Shown: in pieces, positions 5,223-14,100 of the stretch
How the letters are laid out: each line of letters begins with the position of its first letter
Position numbering within the stretch: the stretch's first letter is position 1
NCBI GenBank assembly: GCA_976226885.1
Contig: OZ320317.1
Location: 38,626,001 to 38,690,000, forward strand
Length of the DNA: 64,000 bases
Reading direction: 5' to 3'
Source: Iphione sp. A-MEVVRFRX5
Taxonomy: Eukaryota
The notes under the pieces: generated by a model
What the model was told of the DNA's origin: nothing
Seen by the model: the letters and a program-made list of their open reading frames with translations, nothing else
Databases searched by the model: none
Program-made: the position numbers and the translations under genes

Positions 5223-5342
5223 AATGGCAACGGCATGGTACAGGGCGAGTCATTGAGAGTGTAATCACCCCTGACCGTCTCTTACGTAAGTGTTGGTATA
5301 TAAGACCTTGCGCTCCACGCTTCTGCCTCTTTCTGTTTTCTC
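5223..5342 (+). repeat. Split direct repeat A1 (120 bp)
   Basis: Identical by eye to A2 at 9823-9942 (offset 4600). Confidence 0.95.
5297..5334 (+). promoter_or_regulatory. Putative core promoter in repeat A: TATA box plus pyrimidine (TCT-like) initiator
   Basis: TATATAAG at 5297-5304. CTCTTTCT centred on C5329, 32 nt downstream. The gag ATG is at 5390. Function is inferred. Confidence 0.5.
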
Positions 5343-5389
5343 GTTTCAGACACACGGTAGCAGGACCACAGAGCACTCAACGCGATACC

Positions 5390-6847
5390 ATGGCCTCTCA
5401 GGTGGTCGATGACGATATTGCTACCCCAGCAAAGCAAACGAGACAGGAAAAGCCACCGACAAAAGGAAAAGTGACTGACAGGCTCGAACGCCTCGAAAGG
5501 GCAATGTCTGAAATGAGTGAGCTAAAGGCCCATATTCTTGCAATTTCAGCCGCGGTTACAGTGAACCAGTCAGAGGAGGCGACCGAGCAAGGCCAGGCGC
5601 GAGAACTACACGTGACGACGGGTACCGACAGCACCGGACAAACCAGTTCTGCTACGTTAACCGCTGCTTCGAGTCAGGTCAATGCAGGTACCAGCCACGT
5701 GGCCAGCACTACTATACAACAGTTCCAACAAGCCGGCACTTCACAGCAACCAGCAACAACTACAACCAGTGCGACAACTATTCCCCTCCACCAGCAGCTC
5801 ACAAGCGGCCAGACGACAGCAGTGCCGTTTGTACCAGGGCAACAGGTCACAGGGCAACCGACGCAAGCGTCTACACGATACGGGGCAGCGCAGCACATCG
5901 GACCTTCAACCGCCAACATCTACGCGACCTACCCTCAACAGCCAACTATGATGACGAACAACCCAGCAACGACCATCGGTCAGTCGACAGCAGGCTTCGT
6001 TCCATTTGCAAACGCAGCTATTACAGCAAACATTAGGCCTCTACAAATACCGGCACCAGCCGACCTTCAGCGGGGACCGGCGGTCCAGCACTATATAGAC
6101 AGTTACCTAGACGCCACGGCGCCTTGGCTGTCTAATGCCCAAGACACGCGAGGTAATTTAGATATACGCATAAGACAGCTAATCCCAAAACCGCATATGT
6201 ATCTTACAAAGAAAGGCTTAGCTACACCTAAGCAACGTAATGAATACAGGGAACGCATGTCATACTTTGAGTTTGTAAATGCCTTTTTGGCAATGTTGAG
6301 GGACGAAAAGGCGATAGCTCCGACAGATAGGCCATACTTGTATGAGCATTTGTATAACATCAGTCAGGATGCACAAAACAGGCCATGGCCTCAGGTACGA
6401 CATTGGTCAAATAACATCTTTGATATGGTAGAAAGAAACGAGATTAGGTGGCAGGATTCAGATGTGATAAAATATGAACGCCTTAGAGTGTCAATGGCAA
6501 ATCCCTCTGATGATGACATAATTGATGTTCCATGCCCGTTGTTCAATAATGGTTCATGCAATTTCAAAGGTGACTTTCATTCAGAGAGTAGCCTACGCTT
6601 GTCCCATATTTGTATGTTCTGCCATGCTCTTAATGGAGCTAGGCATATGCACGCCAGCCAGGTCTGTGGTAAACGAGCCAAGGCAGCCGGACAGGTACGT
6701 TCAGGGCAGCACCAGCAACCAGGCCACGTCGCGCCACCACGCTTCCAACAGCAGAATGGACATCAGGGACAACAAGCAGCCCAGAATTCGACGCAACATA
6801 GGCAGCACCCAAAAAACGACCAGTGGCAGACTCCCATCAACCAGTGA
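5390..6847 (+). CDS. Gag-like ORF1 of the Ngaro element (485 aa)
   Basis: ATG in good context (ACCATGG). N-terminal coiled-coil-like segment, Q/T-rich linker, and C-terminal Cys/His zinc-finger cluster (CPLFNNGSC...H; HICMFC...H...C), as is typical of YR-retroelement gag. Confidence 0.85.
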   Translation: MASQVVDDDIATPAKQTRQEKPPTKGKVTDRLERLERAMSEMSELKAHILAISAAVTVNQSEEATEQGQARELHVTTGTDSTGQTSSATLTAASSQVNAGTSHVASTTIQQFQQAGTSQQPATTTTSATTIPLHQQLTSGQTTAVPFVPGQQVTGQPTQASTRYGAAQHIGPSTANIYATYPQQPTMMTNNPATTIGQSTAGFVPFANAAITANIRPLQIPAPADLQRGPAVQHYIDSYLDATAPWLSNAQDTRGNLDIRIRQLIPKPHMYLTKKGLATPKQRNEYRERMSYFEFVNAFLAMLRDEKAIAPTDRPYLYEHLYNISQDAQNRPWPQVRHWSNNIFDMVERNEIRWQDSDVIKYERLRVSMANPSDDDIIDVPCPLFNNGSCNFKGDFHSESSLRLSHICMFCHALNGARHMHASQVCGKRAKAAGQVRSGQHQQPGHVAPPRFQQQNGHQGQQAAQNSTQHRQHPKNDQWQTPINQ

Positions 6848-6877
6848 CAGCAACATGCAGTAATGGTGAGTCTGCCA
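6808..6877 (+). promoter_or_regulatory. Putative -1 programmed ribosomal frameshift signal
   Basis: Overlapping in-frame slippery heptamers C CCA AAA (6808-6814) and A AAA AAC (6811-6817). A 6-nt spacer follows. Then a stem in which 6824-6837 pairs with 6863-6877 (14 bp, one bulge). Confidence 0.7.
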
Positions 6878-8667
6878 GTTGTGGTATTGATTTTGAGAAG
6901 GTTAGGCAGATATGTGAGTCCGATGATAGGGATATCGCACCAATATGCTCATTCGAGATGTTGGCGTCATATCGCAGAAGGTGGTGGCCCCTACCAGTTA
7001 GGGGCCTAGTACCAGACGATCTAGCGTACATTTATAGTGTTGTCAGAGCAGATGGACGCCCTAATGCAGTAGGAGCAAAAATACAGATTCCAACCAAAAC
7101 CAACATACATGTTTGGGAAAAATACCTTAAAAATCATGAAGATACACAACTCCTTGATCTTTTGAAATACGGCTTCCCCCTCAGCTACTTAGGACCTGTA
7201 AGCAACACAAAAACACCACGTAATCATCCATCAGCGCTACAATTCCCAGAGGCAGTTGATGCGTATATTCAAAAAGAGAAGAAATATCAGGCGATATATG
7301 GCCCATTCGAGCAGCCACCCTTCTCGGGGTGGTTTCACACTTCCCCTCTTATGACCCGCCCTAAACGAGACTCTGAAGATAGGCGGGTCATAATGGATAT
7401 GTCCTTCCCATATGAAGAGTCTGTAAACGCATACATAGGGCGTAACATGGTCCTAGGTACAGTTCGAGATCACTCCCTTCCGACGGTTACAGCTCTGTTG
7501 TCAATTATAAGAGAGACCGAAGGGGATTTGCATTTGTGTACAGTTGACATTTCTCGAGCGTACAAAAACTTTCAGACATGCCCGTTGGACTGGCCCCTGC
7601 TGGGCCTATCATGGAAATGTAAGTACTACTTCGACACATCTATCCCCTCCGGCTCTCGTTGTTCTGCAAACCACATGCAGAGGATTGCAGACGCGCTGGT
7701 ACGTATATTGGCAGAGAAAAGGGTGGTGGCTTTCATGTACCTTGACGACCTGATTATATTAGGTCGTGACAAGGAAGAAGCAGAGAAGGCATATAGATGG
7801 GCTAAATCGTTGTTACAAGAGCTCGCCCTCCCAGAGGCAGAAGAAAAAGCCCAGCCACCGGCGAAAAGGGTGAAATGGCTAGGAGTGATAATTGACACTG
7901 GTTTGATGACAGTCTCTATTCCAATTGACAGGATAAAGGAAATCTTAAGATTGGTGCGTGATGTCAGTGAACTTCACAGTGTTTCGAAACATGATTACCA
8001 GAGCCTCCTCGGAAAATTGCTGCAGGTGGCTCGGTGTGTAGCTCCAGCTCGTCTCTTTTTAGGTCGACTCTTACGATGTATGAGGGAGGCATCGGGCAGG
8101 TACGTCAAGTTGTCTCGTGAAGCAAAACTGGACCTTCGATGGTTTGTGTGCTACCTGGAGGACTGGAACGGTGTGAGTATAATCCCCAACACAGTCGTTG
8201 CTCGAGAGGTGGTTGTCGACGCCTGTCTGGAAGGGATTGGTGGTGCGGACGATACGAAGTACTACGCAGAGCGTCTACCGGTTGGGTTCGAAGGTTTGCC
8301 TATTACTCAAATTGAGGCCTTGAACGTTCTGGTTGCTGCCCTGACCTTTGTTACCCCGCAGGATGCAGGTACGACAATCAAGATACGCTGTGACAACATG
8401 CCGGCCGTGGAGAACTTTAAAACAGGGAGAGGTCGCGATGAAGTTCTCCTTAGGTGTGCGAGGTCCCTTTGGCTCCACCAAGCGCGTTGCCAGGTCCAAT
8501 TCATCTACGAGCATACGCCCGGCCGGGACATGGTCCTGGCTGACGCCCTTTCTCGATGGTATACGGACGATAAATATCAAAAGGTAGCCATGGCTGAACT
8601 AATGTGTAGCGACTGTGTACGGGTACATCCTGTTACCAGGCTAGTGACATTATGGCCTGTTGTTTGA
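6823..8667 (+). CDS. Reverse transcriptase + RNase H (DIRS1-type), ORF2; probably translated as a Gag-Pol fusion
   Basis: RT motifs SPLMTRPK, DISRAYKNF, PLDWPLLG, YLDD and KWLGV. RNase H residues in VDAC, QIEAL, CDN and ADALSR. The ORF is in the -1 frame relative to gag and has no ATG before 6958. Confidence 0.92.
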   Translation: MADSHQPVTATCSNGESASCGIDFEKVRQICESDDRDIAPICSFEMLASYRRRWWPLPVRGLVPDDLAYIYSVVRADGRPNAVGAKIQIPTKTNIHVWEKYLKNHEDTQLLDLLKYGFPLSYLGPVSNTKTPRNHPSALQFPEAVDAYIQKEKKYQAIYGPFEQPPFSGWFHTSPLMTRPKRDSEDRRVIMDMSFPYEESVNAYIGRNMVLGTVRDHSLPTVTALLSIIRETEGDLHLCTVDISRAYKNFQTCPLDWPLLGLSWKCKYYFDTSIPSGSRCSANHMQRIADALVRILAEKRVVAFMYLDDLIILGRDKEEAEKAYRWAKSLLQELALPEAEEKAQPPAKRVKWLGVIIDTGLMTVSIPIDRIKEILRLVRDVSELHSVSKHDYQSLLGKLLQVARCVAPARLFLGRLLRCMREASGRYVKLSREAKLDLRWFVCYLEDWNGVSIIPNTVVAREVVVDACLEGIGGADDTKYYAERLPVGFEGLPITQIEALNVLVAALTFVTPQDAGTTIKIRCDNMPAVENFKTGRGRDEVLLRCARSLWLHQARCQVQFIYEHTPGRDMVLADALSRWYTDDKYQKVAMAELMCSDCVRVHPVTRLVTLWPVV

Positions 8668-9638
8668 TTGCAGATCCTGTCGCGAGCTGGTTGGCGGAGG
8701 AAGCGGTGGCCCTTGTAGGTCGGGCCCGGGCGTCAGGGACGCTCGCAAATCGTCGAGCGACAGCCAGACGGTACCTGGCCTTCTGCCACCGTTTTAACAT
8801 CGAACCTCTGACACCGAGCCCTCTACAGGCGTGTATGTATGTCCGCTACTTACAACATCATTTGTCCAGCCCTGGGTCAGTATCAAACTCAGTATCGGCC
8901 ATACGAGAGTTTATCAAAGACAAAGGAGCGGATGCCTCGGCCTGGTCGTCACGTCCGGTTGGCCTGGCACTGGATGCTGTCCACAGATCAAAAGAACATG
9001 TAGTTGTAAGGAAACGTGCATTATCAGTCAAGGATATACGGGCACTTGCATATGCTACACTTTCTGCCCCCTATGGGCTGATCATGAGATTAGCAATGCT
9101 CTTGATGTTCTATGCGGGCCTCAGACAATCTGAGGTGGTGCCGCGTTCGAAGAACACATTCGATCCATTGCGACACCTGACTAGGGCAGACGTGTGGATT
9201 GCTGACAATTTTCTTGTGATCCGTCAAAAATGGTCCAAGACACAACAAAATTATAACCAGTCCAGGAATGTTCATCTCCCACCTTCACCAGACACTGTAT
9301 TATGTCCGCTCACCACGTTCAACTTGTATTCCCAGGCATATCCAGAACGGTCGCCTTCAGCAGCATTCCTGACATGGCCAGAGACAATGGATCCTGTCAC
9401 AGCCCCATGGCTTCTTCACTCATTACTCCGGCTCGCGGCAGCCACTGGTATAGATACGTCTCAGCTGTCCTTACACAGCTTTAGGAGAACAGCCGCTACT
9501 ACAGCATATAGCAGAGGGTGTCCAGTTCAGGAGATAAAACACTTTGGCACATGGTCATCAGAGGCGTATAATTTATACATAGCAACAAAAGATGCGAAGT
9601 CAGTCTCTGGAGCGCTGGTCGATTCCCTACTCTCTTAA
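8652..9638 (+). CDS. Tyrosine recombinase, ORF3 (328 aa)
   Basis: Catalytic-type motifs AGLRQSE (R), HSFRR (HxxR) and GTWSSEAYNLY (W...Y). N-terminal core-binding region (TLANRR...YLAFC). Confidence 0.92.
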   Translation: MACCLIADPVASWLAEEAVALVGRARASGTLANRRATARRYLAFCHRFNIEPLTPSPLQACMYVRYLQHHLSSPGSVSNSVSAIREFIKDKGADASAWSSRPVGLALDAVHRSKEHVVVRKRALSVKDIRALAYATLSAPYGLIMRLAMLLMFYAGLRQSEVVPRSKNTFDPLRHLTRADVWIADNFLVIRQKWSKTQQNYNQSRNVHLPPSPDTVLCPLTTFNLYSQAYPERSPSAAFLTWPETMDPVTAPWLLHSLLRLAAATGIDTSQLSLHSFRRTAATTAYSRGCPVQEIKHFGTWSSEAYNLYIATKDAKSVSGALVDSLLS

Positions 9639-9648
9639 AATGTTTGGG

Positions 9649-9827
9649 CTTGGTATTTTATTCTATTTTACTTGTATCATAATTATTCAGGTGTTTTAAT
9701 TATTTGCATTGTCGATATTCTATGTCTACTTACACTGCGCAGAGCAGCTGGATATTGATATGTGCAATAAAGCCCAAAAGTATTGTAAACCTACCGTTTG
9801 CTTTATCTGTGATAAATCGAGCAATGG
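9649..9827 (+). repeat. Split direct repeat B1 (179 bp)
   Basis: Identical by eye to B2 at 9983-10161 (offset 334). Contains AATAAA at 9766-9771. Overlaps A2 by AATGG. Confidence 0.95.
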
Positions 9828-9942
9828 CAACGGCATGGTACAGGGCGAGTCATTGAGAGTGTAATCACCCCTGACCGTCTCTTACGTAAGTGTTGGTATA
9901 TAAGACCTTGCGCTCCACGCTTCTGCCTCTTTCTGTTTTCTC
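9823..9942 (+). repeat. Split direct repeat A2
   Basis: Copy of 5223-5342. Confidence 0.95.
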
Positions 9943-9982
9943 CCGCCCTCCACGCCCTTTTGTCACAAAATAAATCAGGGCA

Positions 9983-10161
9983 CTTGGTATTTTATTCTAT
10001 TTTACTTGTATCATAATTATTCAGGTGTTTTAATTATTTGCATTGTCGATATTCTATGTCTACTTACACTGCGCAGAGCAGCTGGATATTGATATGTGCA
10101 ATAAAGCCCAAAAGTATTGTAAACCTACCGTTTGCTTTATCTGTGATAAATCGAGCAATGG
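9983..10161 (+). repeat. Split direct repeat B2 (right terminus)
   Basis: Copy of 9649-9827. AATAAA at 10100-10105. Confidence 0.95.
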
Positions 10162-11090: not shown

Positions 11091-11121
<31 letters not shown>

Positions 11122-11125
11122 TCTC

Positions 11126-11163
<38 letters not shown>

Positions 11164-11172
11164 TTTCTCTCT
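11091..11172. repeat. (CT)n microsatellite
   Basis: About 80 nt of CT dinucleotide with a few interruptions. Confidence 0.95.
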
Positions 11173-14100
11173 CACATCATGCACACAAACGAGCACACAC
11201 ATTCGTACACGGGCACACGTACACGCACACACAAACCGTGATTTAGTGGGATTTGGTGCTCGGGTAGTGCTCGTCTCGGGGCACTGCCGGGCGGGACACA
11301 GTTGATCAGTGAGGCACATGAACGTCGCACGCAGACACTACTTGCCTTGCGGGCCGGGGAGACGCGTGTCGTGAAAGGCACACGCCCCAAGGCGCCCGTG
11401 CTTCAATCGGTATTATCGCGGATCACCGGGTCTTCACGGTCAGGGCACGCATGGCCCAGAAGCCTGCGACCCCTCGCTAGCCAACTCCCCCGACTGTGAT
11501 GGCCTAACGTCTGCACAACCCCTTCCCCGCCTGGCCGGCTATTATTCGCATTACAGCTTATTTCTCGACCATTTATGTGCCATTCATCTTGTTCACGCTT
11601 TCCAACACATGGCGGCTCACCATGGCTGCCGAAGGTTGTCATTTGGAGGAACCCCGATTCTTTCAGAAGCCAGGAATAGCGGGTTGAAATGAAGGCCCGA
11701 CTGCCGAGGTCCGGGGAGTGATGCGTTGCCGTATTTTTTTTCACCATTGGTAGTGCTCTTTTCAAGTTAACTCGTCACAGCATAGGAGAATGGTTATGTG
11801 GGCAAAAAATAGACTACAGATCCTTAAAAAAACATGCTGCTGCCCATGAAACTTGATAGAAGGTGACGTCAAGAAAATGTTAATGACCGAGGAAAATCTC
11901 ACTTTGAACCTATCTTCAAACGTGCCCTTTCTTACTCAAGAGAGGCAAATTACATACGAGCTCTATGCAGAGATCAGGCGGCGAGAAAAGACCTATCATC
12001 GCGCATAAGAAAGGAAATTCTTAGAGTTCCTCGTAATATGGAATGTACCTCCAATACAAATAACTGAAAAAGAATTATTCAGACCGGAGATAAATTGAAT
12101 GACGTCAATTACCAGTCCTCCATTTGAAAAAAAGATGAGCAAGTCAAGTGTGCACATAGAAAGTTTTTTCTTGATCGCTCTTCAAGAACCAAATGAACCA
12201 ATCTCAACAGACGTTGTCACGGTCAGTGTCTCTTCACTGCTACAAATTAGGTGTATGTCAAGATAATCAGCTGAAAGAAGATGTGAGTGTCATTGAAATA
12301 ACCCCATCTCATCTCAAAAGTCGAAGGTTCATTGGTTTCAACTCCTGGTGTTGCCAGTGCTATGAGTTTTCTGTTTAATTCGTCTTTCATATTTGTTTTT
12401 TTAACTCTTAAGGACCCTTTATATCACCATTTCGCCTATTTGTTGTCTCTCTGTCCGTCATGTTCTTTTTTATAGTGTCCTCTTAAATCCTTTTAACGTC
12501 CCATCAGTTCAAATGCATTTCTGCTTTAAGCATGCTTTGGGTATTACGCATTTGCGTACAACCAATAGGATCTGTTCTGAACACTTCATATTGAAAAAAT
12601 GGCCTTTCCTTTTCTCTTATTCAGCAAAACATTCCTTTTATATGTTGACTCTGCTGCGTGAATTCAGTTTTTCCTGTACATCTACCTCCCTCAGTGTTAC
12701 CTAAAACGTCCTAGTGCTTTCCTATCTGGTCAAACTGTCTTTCTCTCCGTTTCTTGCCGTGTTCAGGTGGATGATTTGCTTCCCTACAGACAGCATCTCT
12801 AACTCACATGAACAGGGGCAAGACGCCTGAGACCTGGACCGCTGGTCGGGGCGCAATGCTCGCCAAACTCTTACCCCACCCACCTCCATCCTCCTTCCCC
12901 ATTATCCAACACTCCACCAGCGGCTCTCTATTAGGTATCACACGAATGGCATTGGGGGGCAGGCAAACCAGGAGCACAAAAAGCCTTTGTAATGTGAAAA
13001 CTAACTGAGATGTATACACTCCCGATGCCAGGCCGGCTGCTTCCGTAATGGACCCCGGTCGATAAAAAGACAAAACTGAGGAAAGCCCCATTCCCTGGGC
13101 CCAGTCCATCACACGGCTAGTTGGCATCATGGCGGGTAAGGTTCTCACGCCATAACATGACGTTAAAAGGAGGCCCACCTACTAAGGACTTCCTCATGAA
13201 TTGCTTACTTCGGGTCCTAAGAGCTTAAGCTAGATGACAAAAGTTCATTGCTTCTTAAATTCATGACAATATTAGATTGATTAGATTACAAGTTTACATA
13301 AATGCTTTAACAACACCTTGTGTCTTTACTTTGTAAGAGACGTGCTTGAGGCAAATCAAATAAAAGACTAAAATTCAAAACAGCGGCAATAGTTGTCATA
13401 ACAATAACAATAATATATAGAGCGACATTTAGGCACTTGAGGTGGCAGTCAGGGCATACTCTTCATAAAACAACGCTCACATTTTAACACCACTTAAAAT
13501 GCCACACAGAACTTATATTACAAAATGTGACGCAACACCTGGCCGTTATGATGCTTTATATGGTAACAAGAAAAAATGTAAAACCTGGAAGACGCACAGC
13601 TTCACCACATACTCAAGATATACAGTAACGAGTTCCCTAGGGTGTTTAACCATGACAATGCAGTTAGTGCTCCAACAATCTTATCCTACATAAATAAATC
13701 TCCAGCCAGGCGCCTATCTGCGAAATAACATTATTTGGTGCCACTCTCGAGATAACCGAGCGTTCTTGTGGTGTCCACAGTAAGACCTGCTAAAAATTGC
13801 CACGGTTTCTTCCAAGCCAGTAATAGTGAATTGCAATCGTGACGATTGTCATTTAACAGCATCATACTATTCCGGAAACTATGCATTCCAAAAATATTAG
13901 TTGCAATAGAACGTAAGCTAGGGGCATCCCTGTGACAGTTACTACTGCTTAACTTAGACCGCTTTTAATACAAAAAACCACACAGATTCCTCATATTTCA
14001 TGTAAGTAAACGCCTTCCAAAGAAGACCATCTTGATTGAGAGCATCTAGGGAAACGTGATATTACACAGAGCGGAAAAGCAAAGGCCACAAAAAGTGCAT

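Follow-up and report, generated by a model that had tools for sequence, protein, structure and literature searches.

How the reverse transcriptase (RT) and recombinase reading frames of tyrosine-recombinase retrotransposons are expressed when they have no ATG of their own appears to be unsettled in the parts of the literature cited below. An element of this kind lies in the 64,000-nt stretch of DNA analysed here (the window), and a preliminary description of that DNA proposed that its pol frame is joined to gag by −1 ribosomal frameshifting. We found support for the gag-pol frameshift but also found what that account had overlooked, namely, splice signals for the recombinase and a second donor-like site. 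The outcome is a set of exact, testable signals for the RT and recombinase genes, with a different answer for each.

The junction lies in a Ngaro-type retrotransposon

The junction in the window is the ORF1/pol boundary of a Ngaro-type retrotransposon of 4.9 kb with split direct repeats, which spans positions 5223 to 10161; all of the features of the element given below lie on the + strand. The one strand carries a gag-like ORF1 (5390 to 6847, 485 aa), followed by the ORF2 pol with an RT and an RNase H-like region (RT/RH; open frame 6802 to 8667, 621 aa, −1 relative to ORF1; Pfam RVT_1, E = 1.9e-11) and then by the ORF3 exon encoding the tyrosine recombinase (YR; 8674 to 9638; Pfam Phage_integrase, E = 3.1e-07). 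Split direct repeat A1 (5223 to 5342), which contains a TATA-like TATATAAG near 5298, equals A2 (9823 to 9942), with 0 mismatches over the 119 nt compared, and B1 (9649 to 9827), which overlaps A2 by ~5 nt, is identical to B2 (9983 to 10161). The Ngaro-type repeat order A1...B1-A2-B2, with the internal repeats after YR, is therefore present in this element, and both repeat pairs were recovered in 68 of 86 longer loci among its relatives in the same genome. As a side observation, the B1/A2 overlap at 9823 to 9827 (AATGG) recurs at both ends of the element and is a candidate recombination core, and the 3′ ends of two relatives (L047 and L092) have an additional copy of the A repeat, in an A1...B-A-B-A pattern.

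No RNase H match was found with Pfam in the pol of this copy at an E value of 0.1, and PF13456 was found in 2 of the 120 homologues listed; pol does contain a DACLEG motif, which we take to resemble RNase H. Likewise, no methyltransferase domain was detected with Pfam, pol ending at 621 aa with RVT_1 as its sole domain. The element thus has in common with Ngaro elements of the DIRS order the A1-ORFs-B1-A2-B2 repeats, a gag-like ORF1, an RT followed by a putative RNase H, YR, and no visible methyltransferase. The passages seen of PMC4157794 define the Ngaro layout and separate Ngaro from PAT and DIRS1 by the absence of a methyltransferase, and those of PMC3783388 define the layout likewise.

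The repeats are identical within each pair, which suggests a young insertion. Despite this, the copy deviates at three near-invariant RT positions (7183, 7606, and 7648, at which it differs from 28 to 31 of 31 aligned relatives) and so may be inactive. A DNA search with the junction returned this copy and one 72% match and nothing else.

An RT search of the element's own genome listed at least 140 places with 46 to 100% identity, and all 140 sequences were analysed. Removal of near-duplicates left 123 representatives, each with <85% RT identity, and a median RT identity of 53%. These are related elements from one genome, joined by a tree with a length of 37.7 substitutions per site, and do not amount to independent trials, so the conservation counts given below overstate independence. 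The same search indicates that this genome harbours at least 123 Ngaro lineages with RT identities below 85%, mostly as single or paired matches, and many have terminal repeats that are 95 to 100% identical, a picture of very high diversity at low copy number. A single-sequence metagenome scan and a viral scan found no relative, and a second metagenome scan yielded two loci, L169 and L170, with 36 and 34% RT identity, respectively.

A conserved slippery heptamer lies in the ORF1/pol overlap

The boundaries of the overlap are as first described. The pol frame, −1 to ORF1, opens after a TAG at 6799 to 6801, ORF1 stops with the TGA at 6845 to 6847, and no ATG appears in the pol frame before 6958. 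Within this overlap, in the ORF1 frame, is A AAA AAC (6811 to 6817), the slippery heptamer of the mouse mammary tumor virus (MMTV) gag-pro junction. The passages seen of PMC5009743 place A AAA AAC with the heptamers on which mammalian ribosomes shift most readily. We found it within 200 nt before the RT in 115 of the 123 representatives and in the right frame in 111, against 0 to 6 of the 123 for each of 14 other windows of the same length. Among the 12 relatives without an in-frame heptamer, four have it out of frame relative to the RT, three have no recognisable junction, and five have a one-letter variant, which in one case is also out of frame. Of all 140 loci, 129 have pol in the −1 frame relative to the longest ORF upstream, and 108 carry A AAA AAC within the overlap and in frame with ORF1. 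The two metagenome loci have it too (L169:1197-1203 and L170:423-429), in both cases in the ORF1 frame and within a −1 overlap. The other shift site named in the preliminary description, C CCA AAA (6808 to 6814), is indeed in the gag frame in this copy, but just 5 of 123 relatives have it in frame, and we rejected it.

The ORF1 stop codon comes one codon past the heptamer in 83 of 109 relatives and nine codons past it in this copy. From the shift site, the −1 frame is open into the enzyme ORF: summed over 111 elements, stops in the pol frame total 92 in the 40 codons that precede the heptamer versus 5 in the 45 codons from the heptamer on, while the third frame has 48 before and 506 after in the same intervals. 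The pol leader is conserved as protein, with a D/N-F-x-x-I/V-x-x-x-C motif in 95 of 111 elements, 61 of which have no Met between the heptamer and the motif. In this copy, the motif (IDF..VR..CE) is at approximately 6886 to 6918, upstream of the first pol ATG, and no pol ATG is conserved among the relatives. The distribution of stops, together with a leader motif that has no upstream Met, implies that ribosomes probably enter the pol frame at the heptamer or close to it. A K-K-R trace of the heptamer was found in 1 of 86 and 4 of 52 database proteins, a comparison that is uninformative because those proteins begin at a downstream Met.

It might be argued that the signals described in this study are due to chance or are by-products of protein conservation, given that the heptamer encodes x-K-N at the end of ORF1 and K-K-R in pol and that the splice donor discussed below encodes G-N. 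However, ORF1 codon use (Lys AAA 585 versus AAG 624, Asn AAC 943 versus AAT 675, and 24% A at third positions) is such that a conserved x-K-N would be spelled as the heptamer ~7% of the time. Moreover, the first A of the heptamer is constant across codons for P, A, S, T, and V, and the heptamer recurs at 34 to 36% RT identity. With the fixed synonymous positions at the donor, presented below, these observations make such an explanation hardly credible.

A stem-loop follows the heptamer at a conserved distance

A 6-nt spacer (6818 to 6823) separates the heptamer from a stem-loop (6824 to 6877) in which arms 6824 to 6837 and 6863 to 6877 pair over 14 bp, with one bulged T and a 25-nt loop containing the ORF1 stop, just as the preliminary description had it. 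Folding of 6818 to 6881 gave −24.4 kcal/mol and a z score of −3.02, with 1 of 200 shuffles folding as well, and the wider stretch from 6795 to 6900 had a z score of −2.25. A strong uninterrupted helix starting 4 to 10 nt after the heptamer was found in 71 of 111 relatives, compared with 0 to 11 in eight shifted windows and 4 to 10 in ten shuffles; the other 40 have no such helix by the score used. The best helix begins 7 or 8 nt past the heptamer in 65 of 111 and 5 to 9 nt past it in 96 of 111, within a searched range of 4 to 10 nt, and pairing is maximal at +9 to +15. The mean folding z score was −1.68 here (45 of 111 below −2) versus −0.71 to +0.13 elsewhere. Of the two metagenome loci, L170 has a stem 7 nt past the heptamer (z = −3.26), and the downstream region of L169 folds no better than shuffles (z = +1.01).

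The position of the stem is thus kept while its sequence changes, with 73 different 5′ arm hexamers in use and an arm sequence that varies by clade. Conservation of both heptamer and stem among related copies, which the preliminary description had proposed to check, is accordingly evident. The covariation that it had also proposed as a check was seen in part. In a 12-member clade, 14 cells are changed on both sides of the stem and the covariation score was reached by 2 of 500 shuffles; this clade was picked by its arm motif, and L131, one of 13 candidates, was excluded from the alignment. The window's own clade has 28 members. Their stem core hardly varies and the sign of covariation is weak, the covariation score being reached by 12 of 500 shuffles and the double-change count by 137 of 500. 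The suggestion that loop CAAC pairs with GTTG downstream to form a pseudoknot did not survive. The 4-bp pairing is present in this copy, yet in relatives it is at chance level (mean run of 3.6 versus 3.5 in shuffled sequences; n = 71), and the stimulator is likely to be a simple stem-loop rather than a pseudoknot.

This conservation marks the frameshift cassette as genuine and strongly selected. From the signals, the frames, and their conservation, we infer a ribosome shift. A fraction of ribosomes would slip −1 on A AAA AAC in front of the hairpin and make a 1,092-aa ORF1-RT-RNase H fusion (476 + 616 aa, in keeping with the earlier estimate of about 1,090 aa). The majority would terminate at 6845, yielding the 485-aa ORF1 protein. 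That pol is made by −1 frameshifting is, in our estimation, very probable.

Conserved splice signals precede the recombinase frame

ORF1 contains a predicted 5′ splice site, GAG/GTAATT (6150 to 6158), in phase 1, with the exon ending at 6152, and the YR frame is preceded by a predicted 3′ splice site, TTGTTTGATTGCAG/A (8652 to 8674), also in phase 1, with the exon starting at 8674. The 2,521-nt intron predicted from this donor and acceptor (6153 to 8673) would remove the C-terminal half of ORF1 and all of pol. All 86 intact ORF1s have a phase 1 AG/GTAA donor, always at the same column. The Gly encoded at this donor is spelled GGT by all 75 representatives, compared with 23 of 67 at a control Gly column (split 22/8/14/23), and the A before this codon is fixed across R, K, T, S, and Q codons, which is not what a by-product of protein conservation would look like. 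At the start of YR homology, a pyrimidine-rich YAG in phase 1 is at the same position in 74 of the 76 representatives with an intact pol and 3 nt upstream, in phase, in the remaining two. The intron predicted in relatives is 2,468 to 2,656 nt long. The relatives thus have, as expected for U2-type splicing, a GT donor and a pyrimidine-rich YAG acceptor that are phase matched and conserved. In L169, the donor CAG/GTGAGC (631/632) and the acceptor TTCCAG/G (3501/3502) are both in phase 1, and the donor is within about five residues of the homologous place. The donor matrix used to score these splice sites is approximate, and the acceptor score is ad hoc. An acceptor-like TTTCAG just after A1 (5344 to 5349) was rejected because it is not conserved (YAG in 27 of 68).

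Alternatively, pol might be made by −1 frameshifting and the recombinase by a second frameshift from pol or from its own start. Programmed frameshifting was called probable for the Ngaro YR by Poulter and Butler (2015), as quoted in the passages seen of PMC13003380 (2026), and the YR frame of this copy, which is −1 to pol, overlaps it by 55 nt and has an ATG at 8652. In addition, 51 extra loci outside the RT list (26 recombinase loci and 25 loci with the ORF1 motif, from the best 140 to 150 matches listed) included no genomic copy that lacks the intron, and the deletions in L145 and L174 to L176, inspected by eye, do not join donor to acceptor. However, the YR frame relative to pol is −1, 0, and +1 in 34, 26, and 16 of 76 representatives, respectively; 30 of the 76 have no pol/YR overlap, and none of the 46 overlaps has an in-frame X XXY YYZ. 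Furthermore, 33 of 76 have no nearby in-frame YR ATG, and there is hardly any variation in the acceptor or in the donor that matches it in phase. A free YR frame with no slippery site argues against the frameshift suggestion for the Ngaro YR, which this element's family does not support, and we consider this alternative very improbable. The free frame fits the statement in the passages seen of PMC3783388 that the Ngaro YR may be in frame with RT-RH or frameshifted.

We consider it very likely that YR is instead made via a splice; removal of the intron is deduced from the conserved, phase-matched sites. A second, spliced mRNA (6152 joined to 8674) would supply the recombinase as a 575-aa protein in which the first 254 residues of ORF1 are fused to it. 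This would be a useful correction to accounts of how the Ngaro recombinase is made. The real recombinase is predicted to begin with ~250 residues of ORF1, a point of importance for the reconstitution of Ngaro integration and for studies of target choice. As a separate observation, L145 has an RT deletion ~880 nt upstream of the YR acceptor, the ends of which share a GGGTGA microhomology at the second donor described below; this looks like template switching, not splicing.

If the ORF1 donor at 6152 were joined to an acceptor just past the heptamer, pol and the recombinase would share one first exon, and pol would be made by splicing. Candidate acceptors are CAG at 6823 or 6829 or, in relatives, the TAG stop (the ORF1 stop is TAG in 63 of 109), and 93 of 111 relatives have a YAG in pol phase 1 no more than 30 nt past the heptamer, which in 51 of them is the TAG at +6. 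Such YAGs are, however, as common 60 to 90 nt upstream (92 and 97 of 111), and the best pol-phase acceptor is scattered in position. Upstream T is 9% versus 53% at the YR acceptor, and the median ad hoc score is −7.6 versus +4.1. There are 18 relatives without such a YAG, 10 of which have a full-length pol, and the heptamer and stem would be left unexplained. The spliced pol mRNA against which the preliminary description had weighed frameshifting thus has no conserved pyrimidine-rich acceptor at the DNA level, and we regard this route to pol as very unlikely. Taken together, frameshifting for pol and splicing for YR form a combination that we think likely.

A second donor-like site follows the ORF1 stop

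A second donor-like site, ATG/GTGAGT (6863 to 6871), lies in the 3′ arm of the stem, and the exon would end at 6865. A strong donor 10 to 90 nt after the heptamer was found in 66 of 111 relatives versus 0 to 26 in 11 control windows. It sits 0 to 81 nt past the ORF1 stop. Its phase is not conserved (pol phase 1 in 30 and phase 0 in 36), and it is never in pol phase 2, which would place a stop in pol. In the window's clade, it is within the 3′ arm of the stem (between 6865 and 6866), so that the arm doubles as a splice donor, and in another clade it is outside the stem. We speculate that the second donor could be joined to the YR acceptor to give an ORF1-only message.

The strong donor found after the heptamer in those 66 relatives, and its place in the 3′ arm in the window's clade, could also mean that the stem mainly hides or regulates the donor and that pol is translated by reinitiation or internal initiation. 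Against this, the donor is outside the stem in another clade, stems without a donor occur, there is no conserved pol ATG, and 61 of 95 leaders have no Met before the conserved motif. The heptamer would also stay unexplained, and the donor and frameshift roles are not mutually exclusive. As the sole account of the stem and of pol, it seems to us most improbable, and frameshifting at the heptamer is the reading that we retain.

Comparison with known retroelements

The frameshift signal itself is of the textbook kind. It has in common with retroviral gag-pro and gag-pol −1 signals an X XXY YYZ in the zero frame, a 5- to 9-nt spacer, and a downstream structure. In contrast to MMTV gag-pro, for which a pseudoknot is described in the passages seen of PMC5009743, this element has a simple long-loop stem and no conserved pseudoknot. 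It also differs from retroviral gag-pol in having no protease or DDE integrase, the integrating enzyme being outside the polyprotein. With more than 100 natural heptamer-plus-hairpin variants, the family offers material for comparing frameshift stimulators.

Spliced subgenomic mRNAs are known for retroviral env, foamy virus pol, and copia gag. The predicted YR message resembles spliced retroelement mRNAs in that one 5′ donor is joined to a downstream acceptor, skipping pol, and differs from them in its predicted product, the N-terminal half of ORF1 fused to a tyrosine recombinase.

Term-matched passages on Ngaro in PMC8547959, PMC3783388, PMC6681497, PMC13003380, PMC9210276, PMC7192593, PMC9341512, and PMC4157794 describe overlapping ORFs and make no mention of a slippery site, stem, or splice, and titles and abstract openings on Ngaro or DIRS together with frameshift, slippery, splice, or reading frames contain no description of these signals. 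Neither "DIRS" nor "Ngaro" occurs in the passages seen of PMC5009743. The frameshift signal is therefore provisionally new for this element class, the novelty being provisional because Poulter and Butler (2015) or Goodwin and Poulter (2004) may already mention a gag-pol frameshift.

More tentatively, an animal-type Ngaro clade might follow a retrovirus-like plan from one promoter, in which RT is made by −1 frameshifting, a chimera of the ORF1 N-terminal half and YR is made by splicing, and use of the second donor restricts the message to ORF1, in one clade through removal of the frameshift stem itself. We hold this broader scheme to be possible but doubtful. If it were true, the N-terminal half of ORF1 would steer integration. 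This would explain why, in the passages seen of PMC8547959, ORF1 loss accompanies a changed integration preference in the Ngaro elements of Cafeteria.

The ORF1 protein

We call ORF1 gag-like by position only; it has no Pfam match. Its N-terminal half is of low complexity, and its C-terminal half has a conserved helical domain and a Cys/His cluster. The C-terminal half gave a confident structure model (pLDDT, 79.5), for which we found no Pfam family, no Foldseek match at an E value of 0.001, and no clear fold match, the best VIA Z score being 5.3. The Cys/His cluster (6533 to 6670) comprises the invariant residues C168, H192, C194, and C212 and the near-invariant residues C176, C197, and H207 (numbered as in alignment A4), has no convincing Pfam family, and probably forms two zinc sites. 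A CT microsatellite is present outside the element, at 11091 to 11173. Directly before the donor, the ORF1 residues encoded at 6047 to 6130 form a conserved P-x-P..LR..P-A-V-Q...D-x-Y....A-P-W motif. Common to ORF1, ORF1-Pol, and the predicted ORF1-YR fusion, it is a candidate assembly or targeting motif.
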